Below, piece by piece: positions 19,229 through 40,255 of a stretch of 64,000 bases of DNA (the first letter of the stretch is position 1; each line of letters begins with the position of its first letter). The position numbers and the translations under genes were made by a program. The stretch lies in assembly GCA_963665325.3 (NCBI GenBank), contig OZ224045.1, forward strand, positions 2,400,001 through 2,464,000, in the 5' to 3' direction. The stretch is from Alphaproteobacteria bacterium (GTDB taxonomy: Bacteria; Pseudomonadota; Alphaproteobacteria; Bin95). The notes under the pieces are model-generated. The model searched no databases, was not told where the DNA came from, and saw nothing but the letters and a program-made list of their open reading frames with translations.

Positions 19229-19557
19229 TTTCCATTATCTACCAATGCTTTACGATGTGTATCGTATCACCTGCACAGGAAGCATCCAGTTCGCCCGCAA
19301 TTGTACCGTAAGCGGATTTTCCTCAACTCTGAGTCCAGCGCACCATGGGCGCATTCTGTCCTTGGCAACTTCCTGCACGAGCCATCCTGCACATGCCGCC
19401 TCGGCCCTTCGCGCGTCGTTGAAGTGGGTAGTGCAGGGTACGAGGTTGCGGGCCAAGGTATCAAGCGGTCGGCAATTCTTCCGATGTGGGCCTGACCTGT
19501 CCCCGAGGCGCTTCTCTTCCGGTTCTGCGGTGTAGTTACTCCCCTGGTTGAAGACGG

Positions 19558-19582
19558 TGGCTGGTTTGCTCCGCCGTTGACA
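19558..19582 (-). mobile_element. Orphan IS21-like terminal inverted-repeat remnant
   Basis: Minus strand TGTCAACGGCGGAGCAAACCAGCCA resembles IS21-family ends; no istA/istB follows. Confidence 0.45.
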
Positions 19583-19641
19583 CCAGCACCGCCGGTATTG
19601 GCCGAGCCGCCAGGTCGTCCGAATAGGCGGGGCCACCTCAC

Positions 19642-19670
19642 TTGGGGAAGTTGCCCGCCTCTGTCATAAT
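19642..19670 (+). promoter_or_regulatory. Candidate sigma70 promoter for a leaderless smt transcript
   Basis: TTGGGG-N17-CATAAT with extended -10 TG; ATG lies 6 nt after the -10; no SD visible. Confidence 0.45.
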
Positions 19671-19676
19671 GCTCAC

Positions 19677-20708
19677 ATGGCTCGTTCTTCCGCCAAACGG
19701 GCGGCTTCCCGCTCGCTCGCGAATCTAGCTCCGGACGACGTGAAGTCCGTGGTGGACGACTACGCGGCGATTTACGACGCCGGCGAGCAAGGCAGGAGAG
19801 AGCAGTACCGCTCGCTCGTAAATCATTATTACGACCTTGTGACCGACTTCTACGAGTTCGGCTGGGGCCAGTCCTTTCACTTCGCGCCCCGGCGCCGGGG
19901 TGAGAGCTTCAAGGCGTCGCTGCTCAGGCACCAGCATTTTCTCGGCGACCGGTTGTCCCTGGAGCCGGGGATGCAGGTGCTCGATGTGGGATGCGGGGTC
20001 GGCGGGCCGATGGGCAATCTGGCGCGCTATTCCGGAGCCGGCTTTGTCGGCATCAACAACAACACCTACCAGATCGAGCGCGCCAAACATCACACCCGGG
20101 ATGTCGGGTCGTTGTGCCGCTTCATCCACGGCGACTACATGCGGATTCCCGAAGGAGACGATTGCTACGACGCCGCGTTCGCCATCGAGTCCATGCCCCA
20201 CGCGCCGGACAAGGCGGGGGCGTTCCGCGAAATCCTGCGCGTCCTGCGCCCGGGCGCCTGTTTCGCGGGTTACGAGTGGTGCCTCACCGACGATTTCGAC
20301 CCTGAAAACGCGGAGCACCAGTGGATCAAGAACGAGATCATGGTCGGGGATGCGCTGCCGGAAATCGCCTCCATGCCGGAGATTTGCGACGCCTTGCGCA
20401 CGGCCGGGTTCGAACTGCTGGAAGCCAAGGACCGCGCCCCCGAGTCGGACCCCGGGATGCCCTGGTACCGCGCCCTGCAGGGCCGCGATCTCACTCTTTC
20501 CAGCATCCCGCGCACGCCTTTCGGTCGGGCCCTCACCAATCTGACGCTGCGGGTCGGAGAGAGGCTGCGGCTGTTTCCGGAGGGTTCCCGCGCGGTCAGC
20601 ACGCTGCTGAATGCGGCGGCGGACGCGCTGGTCGAAGGCGGCAGGACCGGCATCTTTACGCCGATGTTCTTCTTCCTCGCCCGCAAGCCCCTGCGCCCGG
20701 AAGACTGA
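19677..20708 (+). CDS. smt: Sterol C-24 methyltransferase (ERG6/SMT family)
   Basis: NHYYDLVTDFYEFGWGQSFHFA (region I), LDVGCGVGGP (II), GINNN-YQ, IESMPHAP (III), LRPG-YEW (IV), C-terminal LVEGG-GIFTPMFFFLARKP. Confidence 0.93.
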   Translation: MARSSAKRAASRSLANLAPDDVKSVVDDYAAIYDAGEQGRREQYRSLVNHYYDLVTDFYEFGWGQSFHFAPRRRGESFKASLLRHQHFLGDRLSLEPGMQVLDVGCGVGGPMGNLARYSGAGFVGINNNTYQIERAKHHTRDVGSLCRFIHGDYMRIPEGDDCYDAAFAIESMPHAPDKAGAFREILRVLRPGACFAGYEWCLTDDFDPENAEHQWIKNEIMVGDALPEIASMPEICDALRTAGFELLEAKDRAPESDPGMPWYRALQGRDLTLSSIPRTPFGRALTNLTLRVGERLRLFPEGSRAVSTLLNAAADALVEGGRTGIFTPMFFFLARKPLRPED

Positions 20709-23700
20709 CCGAAGCCGCTTCGGCGGCAAGGCGGACAGCCGGAATCGACCGGTCCCGGCGGCGGCGCTCGTAAAGACCGAGCGCGTGCAGCGGGAAATAC
20801 TGGCGATAGAGGACGTAGTCCAGCAGGGCCGTTCGGAAGAAAACGCCGGCCATGTCCTGTTTGGGCCACGTCCCTTCTGCCTCCTGCGTGTCCAGCAAGA
20901 ACCTGGCGCCCCGCGAAATAGCGGCCCAATTCGAGTCGCCCGCCTCAAGAAGCGCGATCAGCGCCCAGGCGGTCTGGATGACCTGGCTTTCCTCGTGAGA
21001 GACATAGCGGCCGGTCAGGCACCCGCTGTGATGCTCGCCCCAACCGCCGTCGTCCCGCTGGCGCTCCAGCAGCCAGCGGCAGGCCGAACGCAGCGCCGGA
21101 TCGCCGGGAGACGCCCCGGCGGCAAGAAGACCTCTGACTCCGAACAGGGTGCCGTAAATGAACTGAACGCCCCATACGCCGCGCCACGACCCGTCGGTCT
21201 CCTGGGTCCGGCGCAGCCACGAATCGGCCCGGGAGACGGCATCCGCCACTGCCCCATTTGCGATTCCGGGACAGTGCTCCCTGCACGCGCAGAGCGCCGC
21301 GAGGCAGGACGCGGTACATTCGACAAACGAATGCTCGGTCATCGAGTCGCCGAACATCTCGGCGGGATTCAGCCACTCCAGGCCGAAAGCCGAGCGTCGC
21401 GCCTCGTAGCTGCCGAAGCCGCCGTCGCGGTTCTGGCCGCGCAACATGAACCCCACCGCATCGCCCAGCGCGGCGCTGTCTGCATCGGCGCCCCGGGCGG
21501 CGACAATCCCGAGCACCGCCTCCGCGGTGCAGTCGCTCACCGGCCAGCCATGCCATCCCCCGGCAAAACACCATCCGCCCCTGGGGTCGGTGCGGTAAGC
21601 CTCGCGAAACCCTTCGAAGCTGGTGTCGATCTGCTCGCCCAGCAGGAAACCGGCTCCGCGCCCGAGTGCGTCCCCGACCCCGGCGGGCTCGGGCAGCGCC
21701 GCCAGCGCCTGCAGCGCGAACCCGGTGTCCCAGGAGGCGCTTCTCGCACCGGTCACACGCGCTCCCTGCTCCTCGTCCTCCCAGATCCAGCCGTCCAGCT
21801 GCGCGAGCGCCTCGTGAAAGTCGGGGTCGTCCGGATCGTGGAGCCACAAGGCAAGGATGTTGAGGAGACCGCTGACCGGGGAGATACTGGTGTGGCTGGT
21901 GGTTTGCAGCTCCCACTTTATGCGCCGGACCATGTCTTCCGCGCATCGGGCGCGCAGGCGTTTGCCGTGGAACCGTTCGAACAGCCGGGCAAGCCCGTAT
22001 CCGATCTTGAGCCAGGCGCTCGGCCGCGCGTAGAGGTCTGCATCCCGCAAGCGGTTGCGGGATGCAGAAAAATCGACGCCGGCAAAGCCCTCCGGGAACA
22101 GTTCCTCCCGCAAGGAGGCGATCTCGGGCGTGACGGGCGCCTGGAACCGGCGCGCGTAAATCGCCGCCATCGCCATGTAGATCAGCCGCGTATGGCAGTA
22201 CCAGTTCGAGGGGTGCAAAGGTATCCGGCGCGGCAGGCTCCAGAGCTCCGGCAGAACCGCGGTCACCCCTCGCCAGTCATAGAGGTTGAGAAGCGCCAGC
22301 CAGAACTTCCCCCAGCTCGGAATGGCGAGAACCCCCTCGGCCTGCAGGAACCGCCGGGCCGGCGTGACCAACGGATCGTCCCGCTCGACACCGAGCAGTC
22401 TCGCCGCGACATAGACGAGCGCGGTGACGAACAGGTGCGGCGGCGAATGCTCGTGCAGGCCCCATGAGCCGTCTTCGAGACGGGTCCGTTCGAAGGAGCG
22501 CAGCACACGCCGGCGCCGCCCGGGCTCCAGCGGCCGCCCGATAATGCAGTGCAGCAGCGCATATTGCGCGGTGAGCATGGGGCACCAGACCATCTCGCCT
22601 TCCCAGGCCCCGTCCTCTCTCTGTAGACTCAAAAGGCGCGCGGCTGCGCTCCTCAATGCCGGACCGGCGTCGGGCGATTCGATTTCCTTCGGGCCGGCAG
22701 GCCTGGAGGATTCGACGCCCGGAGACATGGAGTACAGGAACGCGCGGGCCAGTCTGTTCCGGGTCTGCCTGCTCTCCTCCCGGCCCTCGCGACTCGCTTT
22801 CCGCAGCTGCCGAACGCCGCTCTGGAGCCACCAGATGCGAATGGCGAGCGCCCTGAAAATGGCCCGGGTCCGATGCGAAGCGAACCGGCGGAAGGAGAAC
22901 GGATTCTCCCGGGTCAGCGCCCGGGTCACCGTTCCGCAAAATGCGAGAGTCATGCCGATCGCGGAGCGGTCCTCGCAGGCGAGTATCCGCGTGGTCCGGT
23001 CCCGATACGCTGGATTCGCCCGCCAGCCTCGGTAGATCGCGGATCTGAGGGCGACTGCTTCCACGCGATGATCGGCGAAGACCTCGTAGAGCCCCATTGC
23101 GAGGAACTCGGGAATGCGGGTCGCCCGGAAGCGTTCAGCGGTGAAGTCCCGAAAGCGCTCGTTCTCGGCGAGCGTCAGCGCATCGCCGAAACCAAGCGTC
23201 ATGCCGACCGCCGTCATGGGATGGTAGTGCCCGGCCGCGTCGCCGATCAGAACCCGGCGCGGGCTTCCGTATGTGACGCGCGGCCTCAGCTGATTGGCCG
23301 CCGCATGGAATTGGCCCGCCCGCAACGCCTCGACGAAGGCCGGCCCGAGGGCCCCCGGCAGCAGCCCGGCGCAGGATTCCGACAGGAAGGCAACCCGGTC
23401 CCGGGGCGTCCAGCGGTCCAGCGGAAGATCGACGATGACCCGGACGCAGCCGTCGGCCAGAGCGTATATGAGAATCGGACCCGGCCCGCCCAGCACCACA
23501 TGCCCGTAGCCTTCGAAGGGCAAGCCCGCTTCGCCTATCGTGACCCCCAGCATTCGGGAGCATAGCATCGGGTCCGTGGACAGACCCAAAGATTGGCGCA
23601 CGATCGAGGCCCGGCCGTCGGCACCGACAATGCGCGCAGCGGCTATGGAGCGTTCGGCGCCGTTTGCCGAGAAGGTAACGCGCTCGTCATCGACCGCACT

Positions 23701-24090
23701 GACCCGCGCGTGGGAAATGAAATCGACGTCGGCTTCGTCCTCGATGGCTTCGCGGAGGCTCGAGACGAGCAGCGCATGATCGCATGCCAGACCGCGGGAC
23801 CCGTCCGGATAGGGAAGCAGGATCGGATCTGAGCCGTCCTCCGGGAACACCGCAAATCCGTTGCCCGGCGTGCTTCGGGGCAGCGTGTCGATGTCTATCC
23901 CGATGTCGCGCAATATCCTGACGGCCGGCGGATGCAGCCACTCGCCGGCCAAACGCCCCGACGCCTTGGGATTGGCTTCGAGGAGGGCCACCCGGGCACC
24001 CTTGCGCGCATGGGCGAGCGCGCACAGGCTCCCTACCGGGCCCGCGCCGACAATGGCGACATCGTAAGGCCGCTCGGCGGCGCCGCTCAT
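20656..24090 (-). CDS. osc: Squalene epoxidase-oxidosqualene cyclase fusion protein (1144 aa)
   Basis: N-terminal: GAGPVG, GEWLHP, GADG-S-VR, GDAAGHYHPMTAVGMT. C-terminal: QREDGAW, IPSWGKFWLALLNLYDW, WYCHTR, GWPVSDCTAE, several QxxDGxW repeats, YRQYFP. ATG 24090 overlaps the cyp51 stop (ATGA). Confidence 0.93.
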   Translation of the reverse strand: MSGAAERPYDVAIVGAGPVGSLCALAHARKGARVALLEANPKASGRLAGEWLHPPAVRILRDIGIDIDTLPRSTPGNGFAVFPEDGSDPILLPYPDGSRGLACDHALLVSSLREAIEDEADVDFISHARVSAVDDERVTFSANGAERSIAAARIVGADGRASIVRQSLGLSTDPMLCSRMLGVTIGEAGLPFEGYGHVVLGGPGPILIYALADGCVRVIVDLPLDRWTPRDRVAFLSESCAGLLPGALGPAFVEALRAGQFHAAANQLRPRVTYGSPRRVLIGDAAGHYHPMTAVGMTLGFGDALTLAENERFRDFTAERFRATRIPEFLAMGLYEVFADHRVEAVALRSAIYRGWRANPAYRDRTTRILACEDRSAIGMTLAFCGTVTRALTRENPFSFRRFASHRTRAIFRALAIRIWWLQSGVRQLRKASREGREESRQTRNRLARAFLYSMSPGVESSRPAGPKEIESPDAGPALRSAAARLLSLQREDGAWEGEMVWCPMLTAQYALLHCIIGRPLEPGRRRRVLRSFERTRLEDGSWGLHEHSPPHLFVTALVYVAARLLGVERDDPLVTPARRFLQAEGVLAIPSWGKFWLALLNLYDWRGVTAVLPELWSLPRRIPLHPSNWYCHTRLIYMAMAAIYARRFQAPVTPEIASLREELFPEGFAGVDFSASRNRLRDADLYARPSAWLKIGYGLARLFERFHGKRLRARCAEDMVRRIKWELQTTSHTSISPVSGLLNILALWLHDPDDPDFHEALAQLDGWIWEDEEQGARVTGARSASWDTGFALQALAALPEPAGVGDALGRGAGFLLGEQIDTSFEGFREAYRTDPRGGWCFAGGWHGWPVSDCTAEAVLGIVAARGADADSAALGDAVGFMLRGQNRDGGFGSYEARRSAFGLEWLNPAEMFGDSMTEHSFVECTASCLAALCACREHCPGIANGAVADAVSRADSWLRRTQETDGSWRGVWGVQFIYGTLFGVRGLLAAGASPGDPALRSACRWLLERQRDDGGWGEHHSGCLTGRYVSHEESQVIQTAWALIALLEAGDSNWAAISRGARFLLDTQEAEGTWPKQDMAGVFFRTALLDYVLYRQYFPLHALGLYERRRRDRSIPAVRLAAEAASVSLPGAGACGRGRRTSA

Positions 24091-25496
24091 TGGAAAACGC
24101 CCGGCTCCGAACGACGACGGTAGCGGACCCGGCACGGTGTCTCGGGGCCCGTCACCCAGCTGCCGTAATTCGGACGCGGAAACCTGGTACCGGGAAGGAA
24201 GTCGAAGCGGTCGAGCAGAACGGTCCAGATCGCCTTGAGCTGCATGTAGGCGAAATTCTTTCCCATACACGCGTGTTTGCCGCCGCCGAAGCCGATCAGG
24301 GCGTAGTGATGCTGTTTGTCCTCGCTGGCGGGCGGCGCGAAACGGTCCGGGAAGAACTGCTCCGGGTCGGCGAACACATGGGGCAAGCGGTGGGAGACCG
24401 CCGGCGACACCATGGCCATGGCGCCGGCGGGCACGATATTGTCCCCATAGCGCAGGGGGCTGAGCACCTTGCGGATCAGCAATATCAACGGCGGGTGCAG
24501 CCGCTCGCACTCGCGCACGGCATTCTCCAGCACGGTTTGCTGCCGGAGACTCGAGATGCCAATGGCTTCCGCCTCGCGGTAGACGTCGTGCATCTCGTCT
24601 CTGACCCGCTCCAGGTAGGATGGCGCCCTCAGGAGCTCAAGACCGGTCCAGGTCGCGAGCACCGCGCTCGTGTGCTGGCCCGCGAACAGGACCGTCAGCA
24701 GGATCCCCGTTATCTCGTCGTCGCTCGGGGCGCGTCCGTCCTTGTAGCGCGCGTCCATGAGCGTCTGCATGAAATCGTCGGGGCTGGCTCCGAAACGGCG
24801 GCGCGCCGCCATGATCCCGCCGAAGATCTCGGCCACTTTCCGCCGCGCCCTGTCGCGGGTTCGATGGGCGGCTGTAGGAAGTTTGGGGAGAAAGAACCCG
24901 AGCGTGTTTATGCCGTTTTGCAGGTCGTGGTACGCCTCGGCGAAACCGGCGTCCACCTGGTCGCGGACTTCCTGCCCGATGAGGCAGCGGCTGGCGATCT
25001 TAACGGTGAGCTCGTTCATCGCGTGCGGCAGGTCGATTTCCCCGTGCTCGCCGAGGGCATCGGCAAACCGCTTCGTTTCGTCGAACATGATGAGCGCGAA
25101 CCTGCGCATGGCGGCTTCGCGGAGCGCCGGAAACAGGAACCCCAGCTGCTCGGACATGATTTCGGGGGAAGCGTCATAGGCCACGCCGCGTCCGAAGATG
25201 GGTATCGTGAACCGGTAGACGGCCTTGGCGTTCAGCTGTTCCTCGGGCGCCCTGAAATAGAAGTCGTGGGCTTCGGGCCCGGCGAAGAGAACGAAATCGC
25301 GGGGACCGAGCCTGAAGCGGAAGAGCTCGCCATGCTCCCGCCAACCGCGGCTCAGCATGGCGACGGGATCCCTTTGAAACTCCGCCAGATGGCCCAGAAG
25401 CGGCCACCCGCCCGCGAGTTGGGGAGCGCCCTGCTCCACACGCGGCGCGGGCTCCGCCGGATGCAGGGTTGCCGGATTGTGGGACCGGTTCGCCAT
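24087..25496 (-). CDS. cyp51: Sterol 14-alpha-demethylase, cytochrome P450 CYP51
   Basis: CYP51 signature VYRFTIPIFGRGVAYD, I-helix FAGQHTS, ECERLHPP, heme motif FGGGKHACMG. Confidence 0.92.
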   Translation of the reverse strand: MANRSHNPATLHPAEPAPRVEQGAPQLAGGWPLLGHLAEFQRDPVAMLSRGWREHGELFRFRLGPRDFVLFAGPEAHDFYFRAPEEQLNAKAVYRFTIPIFGRGVAYDASPEIMSEQLGFLFPALREAAMRRFALIMFDETKRFADALGEHGEIDLPHAMNELTVKIASRCLIGQEVRDQVDAGFAEAYHDLQNGINTLGFFLPKLPTAAHRTRDRARRKVAEIFGGIMAARRRFGASPDDFMQTLMDARYKDGRAPSDDEITGILLTVLFAGQHTSAVLATWTGLELLRAPSYLERVRDEMHDVYREAEAIGISSLRQQTVLENAVRECERLHPPLILLIRKVLSPLRYGDNIVPAGAMAMVSPAVSHRLPHVFADPEQFFPDRFAPPASEDKQHHYALIGFGGGKHACMGKNFAYMQLKAIWTVLLDRFDFLPGTRFPRPNYGSWVTGPETPCRVRYRRRSEPGVFQ

Positions 25497-25504
25497 CCTC
25501 GCCC

Positions 25505-26605
25505 TCAATGGATAAACGGCAGCATCGAAAAGCGCGCCTGCTGCCTGTAGCGCTCCCACAGCTCGCCATATTTGGCGCGGCAGCGCCGCTCATCGCGCGT
25601 CGAGCGGTGCCATAGCAGGCCCGCCAGCCACGCCGGCAACAGGAAAGGGAACCAGGACGCAAGTCCGGTAGTCAGCGCGAAAGCGAGGTAAACGCAAATC
25701 TCGCCGGTATAATTGAGATGGCGTCCGATGCCCCAGAATCCGGAGACCAGCAGGCGCCCGTCCAGGGTCCGGGCGGGTTGTCCCCAGATCGCGATATCGG
25801 GGTCACGCTTGAAGCGGTGCTTCTGCTGGTTGGCGCCGCGGAAAAGCCAGAAGCCGAAGACGAACAACAGGGCGATCGCCGCCGCGGCGGCCGGAGACAG
25901 CGGTTCCGGTGCGTGAACCAGCCACCAGCCGGGCAGACAGTAGAAGAACGGTACCAGCACGTAGTCGCCCCAGACCAGCATCCACCCGAAGCGCTCGCTG
26001 ATGATGTCCCAGGTGTGGATCATTCCGTGCTCGAACTGGAAGTAGTTGAGCACGTAGAGGAACGTGAAGACCTGATAGAGCGCCATCGCCAGGGTAAGCT
26101 CGCCGTAGGTCTCGTACTGCACGACGGCAAACGATGCGTTGATCAGCGCCAGGCCGATGAGGGAGGGGCGGTAGCTGAAGAACTTCAGGTCCAGCCCGAG
26201 CCAGACCGGGCCGGCATCGACACCGCAGAAGAACCCCCGCAAGAATCCCGGCGATGCGTTGGGCGCCAGCGCCCCCCGCAGATACAGCCAGCCGGCGAGA
26301 GCAAAGGCGAATCCGTTCGCGGCCACGAACAGGGCCGCAAAATGGGTATGCAGCACGGATAGGGAGAACCAGCCGAAGGCCTGCGCGAAGCCTGCCGCGA
26401 GCGCGGCAGCCAGGAACAGCGCGAGGCCGTTGAGCTTGTAGACGCGCTGCCCGCCCTCGGCATCCGGCCCCGCGATGCGGCGGCCGGGCAGCAGCATCGA
26501 TCCCAGGAACAACACCGCGACAAACACCAGCGCCATCGCTGCCGCTTCGAGCAACGCCCCGCCAGAAAGCGCGGACGACAGGTTGGACGCCTCAGACGTG
26601 GGCAT
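25505..26605 (-). CDS. ERG4/ERG24-family sterol reductase, probably delta-14 reductase
   Basis: YKLNG, DLKFFSYRP, TWDIISERFGWMLVWGD (FACKEL-like), LLVSGFWGIGRHLNYTGE, RDERRCRAKYG. Confidence 0.88.
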   Translation of the reverse strand: MPTSEASNLSSALSGGALLEAAAMALVFVAVLFLGSMLLPGRRIAGPDAEGGQRVYKLNGLALFLAAALAAGFAQAFGWFSLSVLHTHFAALFVAANGFAFALAGWLYLRGALAPNASPGFLRGFFCGVDAGPVWLGLDLKFFSYRPSLIGLALINASFAVVQYETYGELTLAMALYQVFTFLYVLNYFQFEHGMIHTWDIISERFGWMLVWGDYVLVPFFYCLPGWWLVHAPEPLSPAAAAAIALLFVFGFWLFRGANQQKHRFKRDPDIAIWGQPARTLDGRLLVSGFWGIGRHLNYTGEICVYLAFALTTGLASWFPFLLPAWLAGLLWHRSTRDERRCRAKYGELWERYRQQARFSMLPFIH

Positions 26606-27692
26606 CGCCCTTCTCCGGTCCACGCGCCAGATACTCGCGCCATTTGCGCACGGTCACTTCCTGAAAGGCCTTCACCACCGGATTGAACTCGACGGGACGG
26701 GCGTCCCAATGTTTCTCGTAGCCCTCCTGCTCCGCTTCGAGCGCAAATTGGTCCTGGGCGAGCAGGGGGCCGATAAGCACACGGTTGGAGATATTCATGA
26801 CCGCGGTCATGGCGAAACGGGGAATGCGCACCGGGAGGAAAGGTATCTTCAGCGACTTGAAGTAGAACAGGAAGAACACCCGGGTGGTGCGCTCATCCAC
26901 AGGCAGTACGAAAAGCCAGTGCTTTATCTCGTCGTCGGTGTTCGACCACTGGTAGGGATATTCGTAGCAGAGCTTCATGCTGTTGGTGTCGAGCCGCTTG
27001 TGGTCCACGAACAGTCCGGAGATGCGCCCGCGCCCGACGCGGGTGTCATAGGCGAGATGCACATCGTCCCCGACGGTCTCGCAGGAGACGAGCTCGGCTC
27101 CGTCGAAGGGCCGGTAGCGGCGGTGCAGATGCGCGTGGGTGAAGTCGCTCACATTGTCGATCACCATCGAGTGATGCGCCGACCAGGTGAAGCGCAGCGG
27201 CACGCAGGTCCACCGGCCAGGGCCCTCAAGCTCGGGAATGTCCGGAATCCGGCGCATTTCGGCCTGCTCAGGATCCCCGGGGAAGAGCCAGATCAGGCCG
27301 TAGCGGACCTTCACCGGATAGGTCTTGAGCGCGAGCCGCGGAAAGCTTCGCCCGTTGCCGTCATACGGGACCCCGGCCGGACGCTCTTTTCCACCGTACT
27401 CCCAGCCATGATAGGCGCATACCAGCCGGCACCCTTCCACATGGCCGATGGAGAGCTTGAGCTGGCGATGCGCGCAGCGGTTCTCGATCGCCTGGAAGGA
27501 GCCGTCCGTTCCGCGAAACAGCGCAATCGAATGTTTCCAGAAGACGACCTCGACCACCGTCCCCGGCTTGACCCGGCGCACTTCCTCGACCGCATACCAG
27601 TAATTCGGGTCCATACCCGCGGCGCGCGCCTGCTGACGCAGGGTGCCCGCGTCCTCGAACCCGGGCGGGTGTGCACTCGGCGCCGGCGTCAT
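26592..27692 (-). CDS. sdmA: Rieske non-heme iron oxygenase, probable sterol C-4 demethylase (SdmA-like)
   Basis: CAHR and CAYHGW Rieske ligands, DNVSDFTHAHLH mononuclear Fe site. The SdmA assignment rests on the sterol operon context and coupling to the SDR. Confidence 0.72.
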   Translation of the reverse strand: MTPAPSAHPPGFEDAGTLRQQARAAGMDPNYWYAVEEVRRVKPGTVVEVVFWKHSIALFRGTDGSFQAIENRCAHRQLKLSIGHVEGCRLVCAYHGWEYGGKERPAGVPYDGNGRSFPRLALKTYPVKVRYGLIWLFPGDPEQAEMRRIPDIPELEGPGRWTCVPLRFTWSAHHSMVIDNVSDFTHAHLHRRYRPFDGAELVSCETVGDDVHLAYDTRVGRGRISGLFVDHKRLDTNSMKLCYEYPYQWSNTDDEIKHWLFVLPVDERTTRVFFLFYFKSLKIPFLPVRIPRFAMTAVMNISNRVLIGPLLAQDQFALEAEQEGYEKHWDARPVEFNPVVKAFQEVTVRKWREYLARGPEKGDAHV

Positions 27693-28849
27693 GTCGGGCT
27701 CCCGTCGGGCATTGCCTGCAAGCCCTGGGGCGGTGCGGGACTTTCCGCCTGTCTCGCAGCGCACCGACCCGGGACGTCCGCACGGGGTCGTTTCGCCCGC
27801 GGATTCCCGATCGCGTTGCGGCCGTAGTGAAACGCATAGGCCTCATGGACCGCATCGCGGATGCCGGTCGGCCGGTAGCCGAGTTCCCGTTTCGCCTTGC
27901 CGAGATCGGCGTGGCGGCACTTCTTCAGCAGGCGTATGGCGCCGGGGGTGAAGCGCTGGGGAAAGCCCGGGTGGAACCGGCTCAGGTAAAAGCTCGCCAT
28001 CTCCGAAAAGACGAGCATCAGGCGGGTCGGAATCCGCCGGCGCGGCCGCGGGATTCCCGAGACCTCCTCATAGAGGCCCACGATCTCCGAGATGGTCTTG
28101 TACTCGCTGCTGAAGATGTATTTCTCGCCCGAGCGACCGAGGCGCATGCACAACAAATGTCCTTCGACAATGTCGCGTGCCGCGACAAACTCGAAACCGC
28201 CGTCGATATAGGCGCGGAGCTTGCCGTCGGTGTAATCGCACAAGGTTCTTCCCAGTCGCGAGGGGAAGAAATCGGCGCCTCCCACCACAGCACAACATGT
28301 TGCGACCACGACATCCTGTCCCGCCGCCGCGGCGCGCCAGCATTCCTGCTCGACGAGCGACTTGCTGCGCTCGTAGGGCATCGTGCGCTCCATGGGATAG
28401 AACAGCATCGTCTCGTCGCTGGGCGCGGACGGGTCGTCCAGATCGTAACCGACGGCGCTGAAGGAGCCGGTCACCACCACCCGCCCGGCCTCGGCTTCCC
28501 GCGCCGCCTGCAGCACGTTTCGGGTGCCGAGGACATTGCACTCGAAGATTTCCCGGCGGTGGGCGCGGTTGCCTTCGATGGTCGAGATCTTGGCTGCGAC
28601 ATGATAGACGCCCCGACAGCCGGCGAGCGCCTGCCTTACGGCATCCAAGTCCCGAATGTCGCCGAACGCGTGTTCGACATCGAGGCCTTCCAAAGCCTCG
28701 TTGTTGTCCTCATGCCTCAACAACACCCGGACCCGCACGCCGTCGTCGAGCAGCCGGCGCACGAGATTGGCGCCGACATGCCCGGCCGAACCGGTAACGA
28801 AAACGGGCGGCGTCGATGAGCCCGGCGGTATGCTCGATGCTGAAGCCAT
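27689..28849 (-). CDS. sdmB: Extended SDR / 3-beta-HSD-like NAD(P) enzyme, probable SdmB-like C-4 decarboxylase-reductase
   Basis: VTGSAGHVG, GDIRD, HVAA, NVLGTRNV, YERSK; ATGA overlap with the Rieske gene. Confidence 0.7.
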   Translation of the reverse strand: MASASSIPPGSSTPPVFVTGSAGHVGANLVRRLLDDGVRVRVLLRHEDNNEALEGLDVEHAFGDIRDLDAVRQALAGCRGVYHVAAKISTIEGNRAHRREIFECNVLGTRNVLQAAREAEAGRVVVTGSFSAVGYDLDDPSAPSDETMLFYPMERTMPYERSKSLVEQECWRAAAAGQDVVVATCCAVVGGADFFPSRLGRTLCDYTDGKLRAYIDGGFEFVAARDIVEGHLLCMRLGRSGEKYIFSSEYKTISEIVGLYEEVSGIPRPRRRIPTRLMLVFSEMASFYLSRFHPGFPQRFTPGAIRLLKKCRHADLGKAKRELGYRPTGIRDAVHEAYAFHYGRNAIGNPRAKRPRADVPGRCAARQAESPAPPQGLQAMPDGSPT

Positions 28850-29214
28850 CGGAGAGGAGTTCCGCTATGGGGAACGCGGGTGCGCGCCCGTTCGTGCTCC
28901 CCAATAGTGCGGCATCTTCATGACTGTACCTCCATCTTCGGGATGACCCCCGCGCCGACCGACCGGTGCGATGCCCAACAAAGCAGAAACTAGATGGCTC
29001 AATACTATAATGTCCAAGACGATTTAATCATATTGTTCATGAGATTTTCCAATGGATAACCCTGCCGCGGCGCACTCCGAAAAGCGGGTTTCCATTTCCG
29101 TCCCGACCCTCTCCAGACGCGTCCTTGAATAAGGAAAAACGCCCAAATGTCAATAATGCTACTGAGTCAGGCGCTCAACTTCCCGTGCTCCGCCAGAGCT
29201 GCCGCAGGCACCGG

Positions 29215-29595
29215 CTGCATGCCGCCAATGTTCAGGACCGCGACGGCGCGCCGGACGTGCTGAAATCCATACGCAATGCATGTCCCAGGCTCGGCCGCCT
29301 GTTCGCCGATGACGCCTATGCCAGGCCGAAACTGCGCGGCGCCTTCGACAGGATCGGAAAGCGGTCGCTCGAGATCGTCAAGCGTTCCGACAATGCAAGC
29401 GGCTTCGACGTCATCTCCAGGCGATAGGTCGTCGAACGCACCTTTGCATGGCTTGGGCGCTGTCGACGGCTCCCACGGGAACCCGAAAAATCCATCGCCA
29501 CCAGCAAGGCTTGGACGGCCATCGCACACATCCACCTCACAAACCGGCACCTCAAAAGGCCATGTCATCATTGACCGGCTTCCGAGCCGGGCTCT
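29215..29595 (+). pseudogene. IS5-family transposase C-terminal remnant
   Basis: HAANVQDRDGA, LFADDAY, GFDV-RR*VVERTFAWLGRCRRL with in-frame TAG at 29425; IR-like GAGCCGGGCTCT follows. Confidence 0.8.
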
Positions 29596-31313
29596 TCGGC
29601 AGCCGAGAAGAACACACTTCATGACGATCTACCTGATGGGAGGCGAGGTCCCTGTCTCGCTTCCGGCATCCAAGACGGGTATTAACCGGCTGAAACCCAC
29701 CCCGGTGAAAACTTCCTACCGCGGCCTCGGTGCACGCCGCCTACGCCCCCGACTCCCGCCAACAGCGGAACGAGAAGTCCGCGGCGCTTGACACGACCCG
29801 GGAAACACACACATTAGGTCCGACGGTGCCTGGACCGGTTGGGTAAACAGCGACGGCGCGAGCACTTGGCCGGATACGCAGATCGACGCCTTGCAACGAT
29901 AGCCGAATTATACGGTGCCCATTGCTGGAGGCCAATCGCGTCAACAGAGAGGCTTTTGATATGAACTCACCCAGTCCTTTGAACCTTCCGGAAGAGCTAA
30001 TCGTAATGCTTCTCAACGAGCAGACCGGATATTTTTACCAAGTAGAAGGCTGGACATTGAACTGCGTCATCATTGGTGCAGTCCTGGCCGATCTATCACT
30101 GAAATCGCGTATCGATACAGACGAAGAATCGCTCTTCTTGGTCGACTCAACTAAAACAGGAGAACCGATACTCGATCTATGCTTGGAAGAAATCAAATCG
30201 CACCCCGATCAACAGAACACACGTTACTGGTTAGAGAAACTTACGGTTCATTCGGAAACCATTATCGATGCTACGTTAGAACGCTTAGTTAACTTAAAGA
30301 TTTTTACGCATCATGATGGCGGATTCTATACACTCAACCACTCCAACTGGCATAACATCAAGTCCGAGATTGAACAAGTGATCTTTACCGATACTATTCC
30401 CAGTCCCAGAGATTCTTTGATAATTGGTCTTTTGAACGCTTGCAACATCATTCGCTTTATCTTCGAACTTGACGATGACACGGAAGTCAAAATCAAATGG
30501 ATTTGCAACTTGGAAGCAATTAATCGAAAAATGTCCTCCAGCCTGGAACAGGTTATAATTACTCCTGCTATACGATCCACGCCTCTCAGTAAAAAGATTC
30601 CAAAGATTTCTCTGAAGGACCTTTTATCAAATCGACGCTTCTGGGACGGAAATGTTCCAGCACTAATTGCAAGTATCGCTAACCAACATGGCCCCGTCTT
30701 CCAGTTGCAGCTGCCATTTAAGAAGCCGACCACCTTTCTGGCCGGGCCCGAAGTTAATCGATGGGTACATCGGAATGCTCGTACGCATATGACTTCCGGA
30801 AATTATTTTCGCGAGTTAGAAGAGGCCTGCGGCGCACAAGGCTTAATCACGTCCCTGGATGGCGCCGACCACTTTCGACTCCGCAAAGTGATGAGGAGTT
30901 ATTACTCGGCAAGAAAATTCATTGAAAGACTAGATGACGTGTGCAAATTACTCCGGCAATATATGTCAAATCAGAACTGGCAACCCGGATCTGTAATAGA
31001 AGTAAAGCGCGATACTCGTCTGATGATTAACTTACAAATGACTCAAATTACCGTCAGCACCGATTCGCAGGATATTTTTGAAGAACTGGTCGCGTGGAAG
31101 GAAAGAGCGTCCAATTGCTACGTTGGGCATCTGATGCCGAATTTCATGGCACGCACTCCGGCGATGAACAAGCGCTTCAAACTTCTTGGTGCCTTTATGC
31201 GACGAATCGAACAAAACCACACACCCTTTCAACGCGCGGGGGCGGTTCGGGAACTGGCGGACGATGTGTTCAGTTTACATCGCAGCGACCCCCAGTTTCT
31301 TCCGGAACAGAAT

Positions 31314-32080
31314 CTAGGTCGTGGACTCATAAGCACGTAGCCAGAGTCTGATAGTTGCGATCTTGATCATGGCCAGGAAGTTGGCCGCGAGCTTTTCGTA
31401 GCGGGTGGCGATGCGGCGGAACTGCTTGAGCTTGTTGAAGGCGCGTTCGATACGATTTCGCAATCGATACAACAGTTTGCTGAAGGCGTGCCTGGTCTTC
31501 GCGCCTTCTCGGTCGGGGATGATCGCGACGGCATCGCGTTGCTCGATCAGCTCACGGATCCATTTGGCGTCATAGGCCTTGTCGGCGATCAGGAAACTGT
31601 CGGGCGGCAGGTTCGCCAGCATGGCGCCGGCGGTCGTGCTGTCGTGTGCCTGGCCGGGGCTGAGGTCGTAGCGGATCGGCAGACCGGTAACGTCCGCCAC
31701 GGCGTGGATCTTCGTGGTCAGTCCACCACGGGAACGACCCATGCAACGATCCGGACCCCCCTTTTTGCACCCGCCGCGTGCTGGTGAACCCGGACGCTCG
31801 AACTGTCGATCATCTGCACGTTGCTGTCGTAAGCCTCCACCACCGCATCCATCAACTGATCCCAGACGCCCTTCTTGCGCCAGCGGTTGAACCGGTTGTA
31901 GCAGGTCGTATAAGGCCCGTAGCGCTCCGGGAGGTCACGCCACGGCGCCCCCGTGCGAAGCACCCACAGAATGCCGTTCAACACTCGGCGATCGTCCACC
32001 CGAGGGACGCCGCGGGGCTTGTTCGGCAGCAGCGGCTCAATCACACGCCATTCGAAGTCCGTCAGATCGTAGCGGCCCAT
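31314..32080 (-). CDS. IS5-family transposase, OrfA+OrfB joined by a frameshift
   Basis: OrfA LTDFEW, WRDLPERYG, IDSSSVRVH; OrfB GRSRGGLTTKIH, ADKAYD, RNRIERAF. Slippery AAAAAGGGGGG at 31756-31766; the stop codon is supplied by the target TA. Confidence 0.9.
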
Positions 32081-32153
32081 CTCCAAGCTCCCTGAGGTTG
32101 GGAGCTTGAATCACATCTTCGCAAATCACGAAACACCTTATGGGTACACGACC
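31317..32153 (-). mobile_element. Complete IS5-family (IS427-group) insertion sequence, 837 bp
   Basis: 17-bp IRs GGTCGTGGACTCATAAG / GGTCGTGTACCCATAAG; TA duplication at 31315-31316 and 32154-32155 (CTAG target). Confidence 0.93.
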
Positions 32154-32843
32154 TAGTATTCATGTTGGCCGCTGCACCGACGCTTCAAAGCATTTATGTC
32201 GGCGACCTTTTGGGCTTTGCGCTTTACGAAATGGCCAAACATCCTGAGCTCGCAGCGCAGATCAGGGAGGAAGCAAACATCTTTTTTGATGACGAGGGCG
32301 TGGACCGTGGCAAATTTCTGCAGCAATCCGATACGGCTTCACGTCGTTTTCTTATGGAGTGTTTGCGGATGTACCCCATTGTCTGTATGCAAGCCCGGAA
32401 CGTGGCGAACTCCTGCACGGTGGAGAATTTCGCTTTGCCTCTCGGGGAACAGGTGATAATCGCGCAATCCGCAGCTCACTATATGGATGACAGTTTTCCG
32501 GATCCTTACAAGTTTGACATTGATCGCTATTTGCCTCCACGCAACGAGCATCAAAGGCGCGATTACGCGCCATACGGTCTTGGGACGCATATGTGTGTGG
32601 GGTACGTATGGATGAATTTGCAAATGATTGTGACTCTACTGATGATCGCATATCACTTCGAGTTCGCGCCGCCGCCGGAAAATCACAAGCTCAAGATCAG
32701 TCCATTTCCTACCTTGTCAGTTTCAAAAAAGCTCAAGCTCCGCATTGCAAATAGGCTTCATGAATTATCGGCGTGAAACCTTTGTTTACCTTTCACTGAT
32801 TGCCCCAATGCAGACCTGACGCAGAGGAGCTTCGTAGGTAGCC

Positions 32844-35189: not shown

Positions 35190-35295
35190 TTGGGGATTTG
35201 GGTCGTTTATGGCGTTGATGAGGCGCGAAGCGGGATTTGTAAGGTAGACGGCCTGATTGAGCCGGCTGTGTTCGTGGCATTTCCACGGCAGGAGT

Positions 35296-35576
35296 GTATG
35301 CATCCTCCGAAGGCCGCAGGGGTAGGTAGGCTGCCTTTGAGCGGTGGGTGCGTGGGAGGCGGATTGGTTTGTGGCGTGGGCCGGCTTATGTGGCTTGATC
35401 GGGCCTCTGCTCCGGAACCGAGTTCCAGGGAAGGAGTTCGTCGAGTCGGCTCTGCGGGGTCTCGGCGATCGGGCCGAGAACATCGGCGAACCAGGCCTGC
35501 GGATCGACGTTGTTTAGCTTGGCGGTGCCGATCAGCGTGTAGATCGCCGCCGCCCGGATGCCGCCGCGGCCGGCCG
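35296..35576 (-). mobile_element. IS66-family right-end remnant
   Basis: TnpC C-terminus GGIRAAAIYTLIGTAKLNNVDPQAWFADVL-RLDELLPWN, then GCGGCCTTCGGAGGATGCATAC resembling an IS66 terminus. Confidence 0.8.
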
Positions 35577-36377
35577 TCAGCCGATACGGGCGGACATGCC
35601 GCCATCGACCGGCAGGTTGACACCGGTGATGAACCCGGCTTCGTCCGAGGCGAGGAACAATGCCGCATGGGCGGTGTCCCAGCCCGTCCCCATCTTCTTG
35701 TTGAGCGGGATCTGGGCGTCGCGGGACGCGCGGACCTCTTCGGCGGAAACGCCGCTCCTGCGGACGCGGTAGCCGATGGAGATCGGCGTGTCCATCAGGC
35801 CCGGCATGATGACGTTGCAGCGTATGCCATAGTCCCAATTGGTGCTGGCGAGCATGTGGCAGAAGGCATTCATGCCGGCCTTGGACGCCTTGTAGATCAC
35901 GCGGTCGGCCGCACAGACAGCGATGATCGAGGATACCGCGACAATCGCGCCCGACCGCTGCTCGCGCATGATCGGCACGACCAGCCGAGACGTGCGGTAG
36001 AGACCCTTCAGGTTGACGTCCATCACCCGGTCCCAGACCTCTTCCGGCAGCGACATCGGGTCGTTATCCAGCCCGTCTCCGGTGATGCCTACATTGTAGT
36101 GCAGGATGTCGATGCGCCCGTGCCGGTCGGTGCAGGCCGCAACGAAGGCGGCGCAGTCCCCGTTGCTGGTCACGTCGCCCCGCACCGCGATGCAGTCGCC
36201 GCCTTCCGCGCGGATCATGGCAGCAGTCTCCTCGGCCGAGGCGAGGTTGTTGTCCACCGCCACCACCTTCGCCCCCTCGCGCGCAAACAGGATCGCCGTC
36301 GCGCGGCCGTTGCCGACCGTGTCGCCGTCCTGCTGTCCGGCGCCCACGACCAGCGCCACCTTGTCCTTCAGCTTCAT
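35577..36377 (-). CDS. SDR-family NAD(P)-dependent oxidoreductase
   Basis: KVALVVGAG, GNGRA, YKASK, IRCNVIMPG, ITGVNLPVDGG. Confidence 0.92.
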   Translation of the reverse strand: MKLKDKVALVVGAGQQDGDTVGNGRATAILFAREGAKVVAVDNNLASAEETAAMIRAEGGDCIAVRGDVTSNGDCAAFVAACTDRHGRIDILHYNVGITGDGLDNDPMSLPEEVWDRVMDVNLKGLYRTSRLVVPIMREQRSGAIVAVSSIIAVCAADRVIYKASKAGMNAFCHMLASTNWDYGIRCNVIMPGLMDTPISIGYRVRRSGVSAEEVRASRDAQIPLNKKMGTGWDTAHAALFLASDEAGFITGVNLPVDGGMSARIG

Positions 36378-36502
36378 CGCTCTCGTCCGCCGACCGCTCC
36401 GGTTACGCCTTCCATCTTGCTCCCGCCGCCGACCATCCTCAACCGCGCTCCGGAGCGCCGCCGATGAGCATTCCCCTGTCGGTCATGTTATTCGTAAGCG
36501 CC

Positions 36503-40198: not shown

Positions 40199-40255
40199 CC
40201 CGCAATCCTTATGCCAGCCGGTCCCGCCATGCCAGCGAAGGCCCGCCTGCATCCG

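Follow-up and report, generated by a model that had tools for sequence, protein, structure and literature searches.

Fusions of a squalene epoxidase (SE) to an oxidosqualene cyclase (OSC) are genuine and not new, having been printed as MsbE in 2020 and as 'fused SMO/OSC' in 2023, and they are common in bacteria of marine sponges. The closest described system, MsbE, comes from a sponge symbiont (Mohanty et al. 2020, Mar Drugs 18:124, PMC7074536) and likewise begins with an epoxidase that has flavin-binding residues and ends with a cyclase whose 'key valine' led the authors to call MsbE a lanosterol cyclase. The function of MsbE was assigned by annotation and not by assay, and the gene stands last in the order NAD(P) oxidoreductase, Rieske oxygenase, sterol reductase, C-14 demethylase and fusion, which matches the locus analysed in the present study. 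The same fusion was found in uncultured bacteria from demosponge metagenomes, within sterol clusters carrying sdmAB and sterol methyltransferase (SMT) genes, by Brown et al. (2023, Nat Commun 14:1859, PMC10070321). This is a methyltransferase paper, which places the OSCs of fused homologs in an all-bacterial Group 1 and mentions the fusion only in the methods, N-termini having been trimmed for the tree.

Kelly et al. (2022, Microbiome 10:164, PMC9531527) described 'clusters of steroid genes' from Ircinia symbionts with the order ERG24-CYP51-LSS, as here, and with flanks as here: 'DFR' and a hypothetical protein on the upstream side and, downstream on the opposite strand, SMT or FDFT1. In the portion of that article available to us, these clusters share approx. 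74% nucleotide identity with the MsbE cluster and occur in 115 of 537 MAGs from ten phyla, with gene trees that conflict with the genome tree, and an omega of 0.17 is given for the gene named LSS/ERG7. Under that name the epoxidase half goes unmentioned in the same portion, where 'squalene' occurs once in the text, and the LSS alignment of 3765 positions fits a fused gene. Our literature search found no biochemical test of any fused member.

Gene structure and domain architecture

The window analysed is a 64,000-nucleotide stretch of an alphaproteobacterial genome, and all coordinates refer to it. The fusion gene and its parts are as follows.

20656..24090, minus strand: SE::OSC fusion gene (stop-free translation; both domains by Pfam; relatives of equal length and architecture)
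22735..24090, minus strand: squalene epoxidase part, residues 1-452, with FAD and substrate domains and C-terminal helices 296-452 (Pfam SE and FAD_binding_3; phmmer; Foldseek)
24031..24048, minus strand: GxGxxG (GAGPVG, residues 15-20) of the FAD-binding beta-alpha-beta unit (motif; invariant in 79/79 close and 8/8 distant fused proteins)
22666..22734, minus strand: flexible Pro/Ser-rich linker, residues 453-475 (23 residues; predicted structure; ends and starts of stand-alone SEs and OSCs; dN/dS)
20749..22665, minus strand: oxidosqualene cyclase part, residues 476-1114 (phmmer, Foldseek, TIGR01787, QW motifs)
21520..21534, minus strand: DCTAE, residues 853-857 (in the alignment D853 corresponds to Asp455, the catalytic residue of human OSC)
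20656..20748, minus strand: C-terminal tail without conservation, covering residues 1115-1144 and the stop (conservation, pLDDT, relatives' ends)

Translation of 20656-24090 gave 1144 codons plus a stop with zero internal stops, in agreement with the single stop-free frame proposed in the sequence-only reading. The longest mechanical ORF begins at a GTG at 24510 and would encode 1284 amino acids, the added part overlapping, in a different frame, the P450 gene upstream. The start codon at 24090 and the stop codon of that P450 gene share the sequence ATGA, as they do in 50 of the 51 loci that could be evaluated, and 1144-residue relatives align to the fusion protein from residue 1 onward. Pfam placed FAD_binding_3 at residues 9-308 (4.3e-24), SE at 154-352 (1.8e-21), SQHop_cyclase_N at 480-773 (1.1e-49) and SQHop_cyclase_C at 784-1108 (3.5e-54). 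At the C-terminus, residues beyond 1120 have conservation values of at most 0.12, pLDDT drops under 50 for 1128-1144 and relatives terminate at 1115-1128; the fusion gene and the convergent methyltransferase gene share 53 nt at their 3' ends.

The predicted structure of the whole fusion has a mean pLDDT of 91.6 and a pTM, which is a self-estimate, of 0.90, with pLDDT values below 50 confined to residues 1-4, 454-467 and 1128-1144. No transmembrane segment was found in the protein. When compared with human SQLE (6c6n), the SE half gave a phmmer E value of 1.5e-26 and a Foldseek match to 6c6n_A with a TM score of 0.82 (by target), an rmsd of 2.8 Å and 24% identity across 441 columns of a 450-residue target. 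[quoted passage not shown] The GxGxxG motif, E38, the DG motif (158-159) and the GD motif (283-284) are kept in all 79 unique close fused proteins.

The OSC half matched human lanosterol synthase (1w6k) with a phmmer E value of 1.4e-130, and by Foldseek (1w6j/1w6k) with an rmsd of 1.9 Å, a TM score of 0.84 (by target) and 36% identity, the fold being a double alpha/alpha-barrel. It contains five QW-type motifs and scored 497 bits on TIGR01787 (cut-off 322.7) and 736.4 bits, under the cut-off of 851, on NCBIfam TIGR03463 (2,3-oxidosqualene cyclase). The human residues D455, C456, C533, H232, Y503, W387, F444, W581 and F696 align with D853, C854, C925, H633, Y895, W787, F842, W973 and F1084 respectively, and each of these nine members of the catalytic set is kept in 78-79 of the 79 unique close fused proteins (D853 in 78, C854 and C925 in 79). 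The motif context is VSDCTAE in this gene and VTDCTAE in 32 rows of relatives. With the fusion as query no other cyclase was found in the genome, which has three matches to the squalene/phytoene synthase family. The architecture, domain limits and DCTAE motif read from the letters alone were thus upheld by Pfam and alignment, and the proposed check by Pfam and structure prediction recovered both domains, with Foldseek matches to human SQLE and human OSC.

Between the two halves, residues 453-475 have no predicted secondary structure, with pLDDT values below 50 at 454-467. The region had been described as 'basic, Pro/Ser-rich', which is fair for residues 432-476 (eight K/R, seven D/E and 11 P/S among 45 residues), although by structure only 453-475 form the true linker. 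Stand-alone OSCs begin at approx. 476-480 of the fusion numbering and close stand-alone SEs end within the linker. The median dN/dS, calculated from the 2330 of 3081 pairs with 0.15<dS<1.2, was 0.25 for SE residues 1-380 and 0.15 for the OSC, and for residues 456-480 dN/dS was 0.50. Judged by these ratios, both halves are under purifying selection. A contig from a run labelled as RNA, approx. 94% alike, also spans 22609-22779; it comes from a relative and is not evidence of transcription.

The sterol operon and island

The fusion is the last gene of an operon with the order sdmB-sdmA-erg24-cyp51-SE::OSC, and this operon lies on an island with the following features.

19229..35576, no strand: sterol island, 16.35 kb (two same-genus genomes lack the island at this site)
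19677..20708, plus strand: sterol C-24 methyltransferase homologue, convergent with the fusion (Pfam Sterol_MT_C 4.3e-22 and methyltransferase domains)
24087..25559, minus strand: cytochrome P450, candidate CYP51-type sterol 14-demethylase (Pfam p450 2.5e-55; ATGA overlap with the fusion)
25505..26623, minus strand: ERG4/ERG24-family sterol reductase (Pfam PF01222 8.3e-72)
26592..27764, minus strand: Rieske oxygenase, SdmA-like (C-4 demethylation; Pfam Rieske and VanA_C)
27689..28849, minus strand: NAD-dependent epimerase/3beta-HSD family protein, SdmB-like (Pfam)
29922..32776, plus strand: GPP34::cytochrome P450 gene split by an insertion sequence (IS), with N part 29922-31340, IS5-family element 31317-32152 and C part 32162-32776 (Pfam)
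32844..35189, plus strand: RND/MMPL transporter (HAE3, HpnN-like) with sterol-sensing-domain similarity (Pfam MMPL, Patched, Sterol-sensing)

The SdmA-like protein scored 402.9 bits on the NCBIfam model for 4beta-methylsterol monooxygenase and the SdmB-like protein 296.5 bits on that for SdmB, both under the cut-off of 600, and the transporter scored 187.7 bits (HAE3) and 132.3 bits (HpnN), again under both cut-offs. Among the best 80 related loci, the five-gene operon is colinear in 61, CYP51 lies upstream of the fusion in 69 and a sterol methyltransferase homologue is found in the flanks of 58. The remaining 11 loci have no CYP51 within the flank examined (up to 9 kb, two loci being short or cut), and nine of these carry GPP34-P450 and the RND transporter beside the fusion. 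These two genes often accompany the fusion. Intact GPP34-P450 forms of 674-689 amino acids (16 distinct proteins from 15 loci) exist, and all four that were scanned have both GPP34 and P450 domains. The IS5-family element in our copy has inverted repeats with CTAG on either side and is missing from the corresponding genes of G011 and L007.

In two sister genomes (G012 and G016) the hydantoinase gene and the SDR gene, which flank the island here, are separated by 18 and 36 bp, which represents the empty site, and in a third (G011) the same island is present at 90-94% nucleotide identity with different flanks. The island is horizontally acquired, and the relatives of the host are sponge-symbiont MAGs. 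No convincing end repeats were found for the island, the sole clear inverted repeat being that of the internal IS. The suggestion that the fusion makes two steps transferable as a single gene is half right: here it moved within the 16.35 kb island, elsewhere it mostly sits in the five-gene operon, and 11 loci have no CYP51 in the flank. We also considered an ORF at 19250-19636, for which Pfam gave nothing and tblastx matched none of the other loci and which was treated as non-coding, and an rRNA operon in a low-G+C stretch, where Rfam searches of 27000-38000 matched nothing and the stretch proved to be the GPP34-P450/RND module.

Distribution of fused and split forms

Searches of species-representative genomes (one genome per species) revealed 429 stretches that encode a relative of the fusion, the best 80 coming from at least seven phyla, with several record titles naming sponges. 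All 120 of the protein clusters listed, at 72-96% identity, carry both domains. The earlier statement that such fusions are known from only a few bacteria was wrong in scale. By the proposed survey of distribution the fusion is not rare, and it is already in print (PMC7074536, PMC10070321).

Natural unfused forms exist as well, and fusion is thus not obligatory. Close stand-alone SEs that end inside the linker were P0277 (72% identity; four members, each of 475 amino acids), P0279 and P0139. When 400 genomes drawn evenly from the same class were searched with P0277, two had a close match, and both were fused. In the OSC tree all 26 fused rows fall in one clade of 30 rows with 99% support, inside which there are also four OSC-only representatives. 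In addition, decayed copies of the fusion were seen, with stops in two loci (L032 and L065), D853G in a third (L086) and a two-piece gene in one genome (G008).

Alternative explanations

An inactive or repurposed SE half (for example a membrane anchor or regulator), with epoxidation left to another enzyme, would fit with the one FA_hydroxylase-family gene found elsewhere in the genome, the superfamily to which an alternative squalene epoxidase found in some eukaryotes belongs. It would also fit with F79 and H53, which in the phmmer alignment occupy the positions of human SQLE Y195 and Q168, so that the Tyr195-Gln168 pair is not matched, the Y195F variant of human SQLE having lost >90% of activity (PMC6327030). 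However, stand-alone bacterial SE representatives have F in 27/28 and H in 28/28 cases and SE-SQS fusions have both in 13/13, which indicates a clade-wide co-substitution and not decay, and since the pair is found across this bacterial SE clade we regard it as probably a lineage trait. No named, experimentally proven epoxidase was among the matches in our search for shorter SE-like proteins. The FAD motifs are moreover invariant, the SE dN/dS is 0.25, the fold matches SQLE across its 441 columns and the fusion is the sole PF08491 match in the genome, and we consider loss of epoxidase function very improbable. Another alternative concerns the product of the OSC half. Of A782, H847 and V851, at the product-specificity triad (lanosterol versus cycloartenol synthase), only the valine matches human T381/C449/V453, and histidine at the second position is the residue of cycloartenol synthases; M500 also takes the place of human Y98, in a part of the alignment with gaps where the position is uncertain. 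These residues might point to cycloartenol, parkeol or an arborane-type triterpenol, in which case the cluster would not start from lanosterol. We think this unlikely, as the triad is invariant in 79/79 close fused proteins, with H in 8/8 and A in 7/8 distant ones, and is thus a stable type, and as the downstream CYP51, Delta14-reductase and SdmAB suit a 14-methyl, 4,4-dimethyl protosterol of either kind. V851, which aligns with human V453, also corresponds to the valine from which MsbE was named a lanosterol cyclase in the published description (PMC7074536), and the product would be a protosterol, most likely lanosterol.

As for the fusion itself, the possibility that an assembly or sequencing artefact conceals a stop or frameshift in the linker is negligible: the frame is open across the SE-OSC junction in 86/86 loci examined (as alignment segments) from many assemblies, no indel appears anywhere along the gene in the contigs of three DNA runs, and contigs of two of these (X3 and X10, from two studies) bridge the linker gap-free at 22579-22956 and 22579-23095. 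The stop or frameshift in the linker that the sequence-only reading named as a refutation was not seen in these loci and contigs. Another proposal is that the fusion brings no kinetic benefit, having arisen when the stop codon that separated neighbouring sqmo and osc genes was lost, and is harmless or merely sets a 1:1 ratio between halves that act as independent monotopic enzymes. The close stand-alone SEs ending within the linker and the OSC-only members inside the fused clade indicate that fused and split states interconvert, and the linker is disordered and weakly constrained (dN/dS 0.50). On the other hand, the open junction extends over at least seven phyla, the single well-supported OSC clade formed by the fused rows implies that the fused state has long been retained, and a pTM of 0.90 for the full 1144-residue chain suggests that the two domains pack in a defined way. 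We hold a fusion of no benefit to be less likely than not.

Proposed function and significance

We consider it likely, with a probability of roughly 0.8, that the fused protein is a bifunctional MsbE-type enzyme of the membrane surface, which would convert squalene via oxidosqualene into a protosterol, and that its gene was acquired with the island. The analysis shows the architecture, intact frame, conserved catalytic residues, purifying selection, folds, island borders and wide distribution. The N-terminal group A flavoprotein mono-oxygenase (residues 1-452) would epoxidize squalene to 2,3-oxidosqualene, and the C-terminal class II cyclase (476-1114) would fold the latter into a protosterol after protonation of the epoxide by D853 of VSDCTAE. 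The disordered 23-residue tether would ensure that the halves are made 1:1 and lie side by side on the membrane, and tethering should shorten the path of the epoxide. Given the operon enzymes and the convergent sterol methyltransferase, the end products are likely to be demethylated, side-chain-methylated sterols. Enzyme activities, product, electron donor and channelling are what we infer here; channelling of 2,3-oxidosqualene within the fusion is plausible, and the confident two-domain model is compatible with it and says no more.

A bolder and rather doubtful extension would have the two domains packed rigidly, with the SE exit and OSC entrance on one membrane patch, giving true channelling that keeps the reactive epoxide, and its over-oxidation to dioxidosqualene, away from the bacterial membrane. 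The minimal unit spreading among sponge symbionts of many phyla would then consist of the one-gene 'protosterol module', GPP34-P450 and the RND pump, and would make, tailor and export a sterol-like lipid at the host interface. If this were true, the sponge-specific GPP34-P450 family would gain a metabolic role instead of the proposed phagocytosis-blocking role.

Sterol synthesis by sponge bacteria bears on which organisms make the sterols that underlie the sponge biomarker '24-isopropylcholestane', and also on the movement of eukaryote-like lipid pathways between bacteria. As natural split forms exist, the fusion family offers a natural test of channelling between two membrane-surface enzymes, and the Phe/His pair in place of human Tyr195/Gln168 is a point of interest for mutagenesis. 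The present copy is no new kind of enzyme; it is clean and complete and lies on a genome that is nearly complete itself, and the value of this locus lies in its exact island borders, in two sister genomes whose site is empty and in a third that carries the same island elsewhere.

Comparison with known systems

Human squalene epoxidase (6C6N) and lanosterol synthase (1W6K) have in common with the fusion their folds, the OSC catalytic set and the FAD motifs, but in eukaryotes they are two separate proteins, whereas the fusion is one, without a transmembrane segment and with F79/H53 for Y195/Q168. Another natural fusion in a bacterial sterol pathway is the CYP51-ferredoxin of Methylococcus capsulatus, which according to its description (Lamb et al. 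2021, PMC7947880) joins an enzyme to its redox partner and not two consecutive enzymes; the CYP51 of our locus is unfused. In comparison with MsbE, the host here is an alphaproteobacterium, and the locus adds a convergent sterol methyltransferase and the GPP34-P450/RND module.

An intact gene for a fused epoxidase and cyclase

The gene for the squalene epoxidase-oxidosqualene cyclase fusion (SE::OSC) occupies 20656-24090 on the reverse strand, and its translation gave 1144 residues with zero internal stops. Mechanical ORF calling would start the frame at a GTG at 24510, but the added part runs over the P450 gene upstream, which is read in a different frame. The fusion ATG at 24090 and the P450 stop overlap as ATGA, an arrangement shared by 50 of the 51 related loci that could be evaluated, and in relatives of exactly 1144 residues the alignment starts at residue 1. 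By tblastn with the fusion protein, both domains were found in one segment in all 86 loci, comprising 80 from species-representative genomes and six from the window's relatives, with the window's own locus included. One stop was present in each of seven segments, five being natural ends at residues 1115-1128 and two lying inside the cyclase half (residue 650 in locus L032 and residue 1011 in locus L065). The gene's 30 bins were all covered by contigs of three DNA sequencing runs, in which no indel was seen, and the linker (22666-22734) was bridged gap-free by contigs from two runs of two studies (X3, 22579-22956; X10, 22579-23095). Neither a stop nor a frameshift was found in the linker in any of the 86 loci or in the contigs spanning it. 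Together, the 86 loci and the gap-free contigs exclude, for practical purposes, an assembly artefact as the source of the single frame.

Both domains were recognized by Pfam, far over cut-off, and the DCTAE motif was located, so that the coordinates and description of the sequence-only reading, a stop-free 1144-residue frame, were correct.

Features of the fusion protein
Residues 9-308, FAD_binding_3 (Pfam)
Residues 15-20, GAGPVG (GxGxxG)
Residues 154-352, SE domain (Pfam)
Residues 480-773, SQHop_cyclase_N (Pfam)
Residues 784-1108, SQHop_cyclase_C (Pfam)
Residues 853-857, DCTAE

Two complete folds joined by a short linker

An AlphaFold2 model of the fusion, built on an 81-row alignment, had a mean pLDDT of 91.6 and a pTM (the model's own estimate) of 0.90, with pLDDT below 50 only at residues 1-4, 454-467 and 1128-1144. 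By Foldseek, the C-terminal half matches human OSC (1w6j/1w6k; rmsd 1.9 Å, TM 0.84 by target, 36% identity) and the N-terminal half matches human squalene epoxidase at 24% identity (6c6n_A; rmsd 2.8 Å over 441 columns, the target having 450 residues). Both folds are complete. Human squalene epoxidase (SQLE) has a membrane-associated helical domain, according to Padyana et al. (PMC6327030), and because the match to 6c6n_A spans 441 columns, helices 296-452 of the fusion are its counterpart. The true linker in the model is residues 453-475 only; when fused proteins are aligned with their unfused relatives, distant stand-alone epoxidases stop near residue 430-440 and stand-alone cyclases start near 476-480. 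No transmembrane helix was found among the 19-residue windows of the fusion, of which the top Kyte-Doolittle mean was 1.72, in a segment modelled as strand. We read the protein as probably monotopic, as are the catalytic domains of the corresponding eukaryotic enzymes, and the high pTM suggests a defined mutual position of the two domains, a placement that would fit both lying on one face of the membrane.

Catalytic residues, selection and product

The catalytic sets of both halves are conserved. On a HMMER alignment to human lanosterol synthase, D853, C854 and C925 of the fusion correspond to D455, C456 and C533, H633 and Y895 to H232 and Y503, and W787, F842, W973 and F1084 to W387, F444, W581 and F696, all of which we take to be active-site residues of the human enzyme. 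Each of the nine is kept in 78 or 79 of 79 unique close fused proteins (the 86 less L032 and L065 with internal stops, L046, which a contig end truncates, and four duplicates), the sole exception being D853G in L086, whose title marks it as a low-coverage contig. Around the catalytic Asp, VSDCTAE occurs in 50 and VTDCTAE in 32 of 87 aligned rows. In the epoxidase half, GxGxxG, E38, R46, the DG motif (158-159) and the GD motif (283-284) are kept in 79/79. Median pairwise dN/dS (Nei-Gojobori; 2330 of 3081 pairs, with 0.15<dS<1.2) was 0.25 for SE residues 1-380, 0.15 for the cyclase, 0.55 for helices 381-455 and 0.50 for 456-480, which indicates purifying selection on both halves and less on the junction.

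One point counts against an active predicted epoxidase half, namely the lack of the Tyr195/Gln168 pair of human SQLE. With the offset of the SQLE alignment fixed by the known positions G130, E153, Q168 and Y195, F79 and H53 of the fusion align with Y195 and Q168, and Padyana et al. (PMC6327030) report that Y195F and Y195A each cost the human enzyme >90% of its activity, ascribed to a Y195-Q168 hydrogen bond. F79 and H53 are, however, invariant in the fused family (79 of 79 close and 8 of 8 distant proteins); Phe is also present in 27 and His in all 28 of 28 stand-alone SE representatives, and both in 13 of 13 fusions of SE with squalene synthase (SE-SQS). We read Phe/His as a probable clade-wide co-substitution of bacterial epoxidases, not as decay; a protein search for a named bacterial epoxidase of proven activity, with which to compare these positions, returned none. 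The fusion is the sole PF08491 match in the genome, in which the fusion protein as query found no second cyclase. The genome also has a sole gene of the FA_hydroxylase family (PF04116; G000:C1:2211583-2211993), a family to which ERG3/ERG25 and the alternative squalene epoxidase belong.

As to the product, two positions of the specificity triad differ from human OSC, A782 standing against T381 and H847 against C449, where His is, we assume, the cycloartenol-synthase residue. V851 aligns with human V453, and all three residues are invariant in the 79 close fused proteins. It was on the basis of this 'key valine' that Mohanty et al. named MsbE, a sponge-symbiont fusion published in 2020, a lanosterol cyclase. 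Lanosterol is our best guess from the residues.

The best reading of these data is a bifunctional monotopic enzyme, whose N-terminal half would make 2,3-oxidosqualene and whose cyclase half would cyclise it at once, the two reactions being predicted to form the committed entry into a sterol pathway that was gained by horizontal transfer. We infer that such an enzyme would be active in both halves, release lanosterol, draw on an electron donor and channel its intermediate.

A sterol operon in a mobile, composite island

The fusion closes an operon of sterol genes, the four upstream members of which have overlapping ends. Among the best 80 of 429 related loci, with flanks of up to 9 kb around SE::OSC, the five-gene colinear order is found in 61, the P450 in 69 and the methyltransferase in 58. 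Three squalene/phytoene synthase family matches lie elsewhere in the genome.

Genes and elements around the fusion
19677-20708, convergent with the fusion, sterol methyltransferase homologue
24087-25559, reverse strand, P450 directly upstream of the fusion
25505-26623, reverse strand, upstream, ERG24-family reductase
26592-27764, reverse strand, upstream, SdmA-like Rieske oxygenase (NCBIfam SdmA, 403 bits against an equivalog cut-off of 600)
27689-28849, reverse strand, upstream, SdmB-like dehydrogenase (NCBIfam SdmB, 297 bits against an equivalog cut-off of 600)
29125-29427, DDE transposase fragment where the high-GC sterol operon meets the low-GC GPP34-P450/RND module
29922-32776, GPP34::P450 gene in the island's second half, cut in two by an IS5-family element
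31317-32152, IS5-family element with 20-nt inverted repeats and CTAG on both sides
32844-35189, RND/MMPL transporter (HAE3, HpnN-like) adjoining the GPP34-P450 gene, with weak BstA and sterol-sensing-domain similarity

These genes lie in an island that is mobile. In G012 and G016, same-genus genomes without the fusion, the hydantoinase/oxoprolinase and SDR orthologues are 18 and 36 bp apart; in the window, 16,348 bp (19229-35576) separate the hydantoinase/oxoprolinase gene (15482-19228) from the SDR gene (35577-36377). The closest relative with the fusion (G011, 95% protein identity) has the same island at 90-94% DNA identity between unrelated flanks. A strong fusion match was found in 10 of the 17 genomes of the genus, the window's included, and in none of eight genomes of the family's two other genera; contig ends truncate the matches in G006 and G015. 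In G008 the gene is in two pieces 1.9 kb apart (G008:C3:2418361-2423758), and this copy, like those of L032, L065 and L086, is decaying. The island is also composite, with a G+C of about 0.66-0.67 in the sterol operon and 0.51-0.56 in the GPP34-P450/RND part. Nearby, 37416-40228 is another 2.8-kb stretch without a counterpart at the site in G012 or G016, and its ORF at 37531-38295 has no Pfam match. The flanking fused hydantoinase A/B (oxoprolinase-like) gene is one of a very large set of paralogues, with 19 to 31 matches in each of five same-genus genomes.

Intact GPP34::P450 genes of 674-689 residues were found as 16 distinct proteins in 15 loci, with both domains in 4 of 4 scanned, and the IS is absent from the gene in G011 and in locus L007. 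The genome has a second, intact long-form GPP34-P450 paralogue (G000:C1:1245306-1247294; 49% identical to the island type), which may explain tolerance of the split copy. This architecture, GPP34_L (PMC11706023, 2025), has been called exclusive to sponge symbionts and proposed to block phagocytosis, in a text from which the word 'sterol' is absent; our literature search found no paper tying GPP34, sterol and symbiont together. Within flanks of up to 9 kb around SE::OSC, GPP34::P450 occurs in 28 and RND/MMPL in 30 of 80 loci, and where the flanks are complete but the CYP51 set is missing, both are present without exception (9 of 9). By sequence, the closest solved relatives of the P450 part are CYP51 enzymes (E about 1e-17). 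Because of its closeness to SE::OSC in those 28 loci, the evidence points to a likely part for GPP34::P450 in sterol chemistry, rather than or besides a role in phagocytosis. Long-form GPP34 is present in 10 of 10 genus genomes with the fusion vs 2 of 7 without, a weak co-occurrence since kin are not independent.

Distribution and history of the fusion

Among genomes chosen as single representatives of their species, 493 stretches matched the fusion query, of which 429 encode a relative. The best 80 of the 429 are all fused and 63-91% identical. Their record titles place them in Alpha- and Gammaproteobacteria, Nitrospirales, Binatia, Bryobacterales, Opitutales, Palauibacter and Thermodesulfobacteriota, and sponges are named in several; the sequencing runs in which the gene occurs bear either a sponge-metagenome label or a coded organism name. 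A close epoxidase was found in 2 of 400 evenly drawn same-class genomes, fused in both. In a FastTree phylogeny of the 79 close and eight distant fused proteins, Nitrospiria (12 rows) are nested among gammaproteobacterial rows, and the class label changes 8 times, against a minimum of 6 and 34 in shuffles, which argues for few between-class transfers followed by vertical spread.

Among the 50%-identity clusters checked, nine are SE::OSC fusions (P0016, classed by precomputed Pfam domains, P0122-P0127, P0133, which is without the DCTAE motif, and P0137). In the OSC-domain tree, a single clade of 30 rows with 99% support contains every one of the 26 fused rows together with four OSC-only rows, and the fusion may have had one origin with later splits. 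Stand-alone epoxidases with 56-75% identity and the same basic extension (P0277, P0276, P0279, P0139 and P0292) end inside the Pro/Ser linker, P0277 having four 475-residue members on several contigs. Such natural split forms look real, and since they exist, fusion is an option, not a necessity.

Other predicted fusions of early sterol enzymes are present in metagenomes. Thirteen clusters at 50% identity (P0195, P0198, P0200, P0202, P0211, P0220, P0224, P0235, P0242, P0251, P0259, P0261 and P0266) combine an SE domain with a squalene/phytoene synthase domain at the C-terminus, the roughly 400 residues in between giving no Pfam hit at E up to 1e-10, and one cluster, P0192, is a squalene synthase fused to OSC.

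Comparison with known systems

The fusion is already in print, as MsbE (Mohanty et al. 2020, PMC7074536) and as 'fused SMO/OSC homologs' of uncultured bacteria, from sterol clusters of demosponge metagenomes that also hold sdmAB and sterol methyltransferases (Brown et al. 2023, PMC10070321). We found no biochemical study of an SE::OSC fusion in the open-access literature searched. There is no mention of one in Hoshino and Gaucher (2021), where 'fused' occurs only in a cited title and 'fusion' is absent, or in Wei et al. (2016), where neither word occurs. In the portion of Kelly et al. (2022) available, an ERG24-CYP51-LSS cluster is described in 115 of 537 MAGs from 10 phyla, with horizontal transfer and an omega of 0.17 for 'LSS'; the epoxidase half of the gene is unnamed in that account, and the conflict it reports between gene trees and genome tree agrees with the transfers inferred here. 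The SE::OSC fusion is an already known kind, and the window's copy is a further member.
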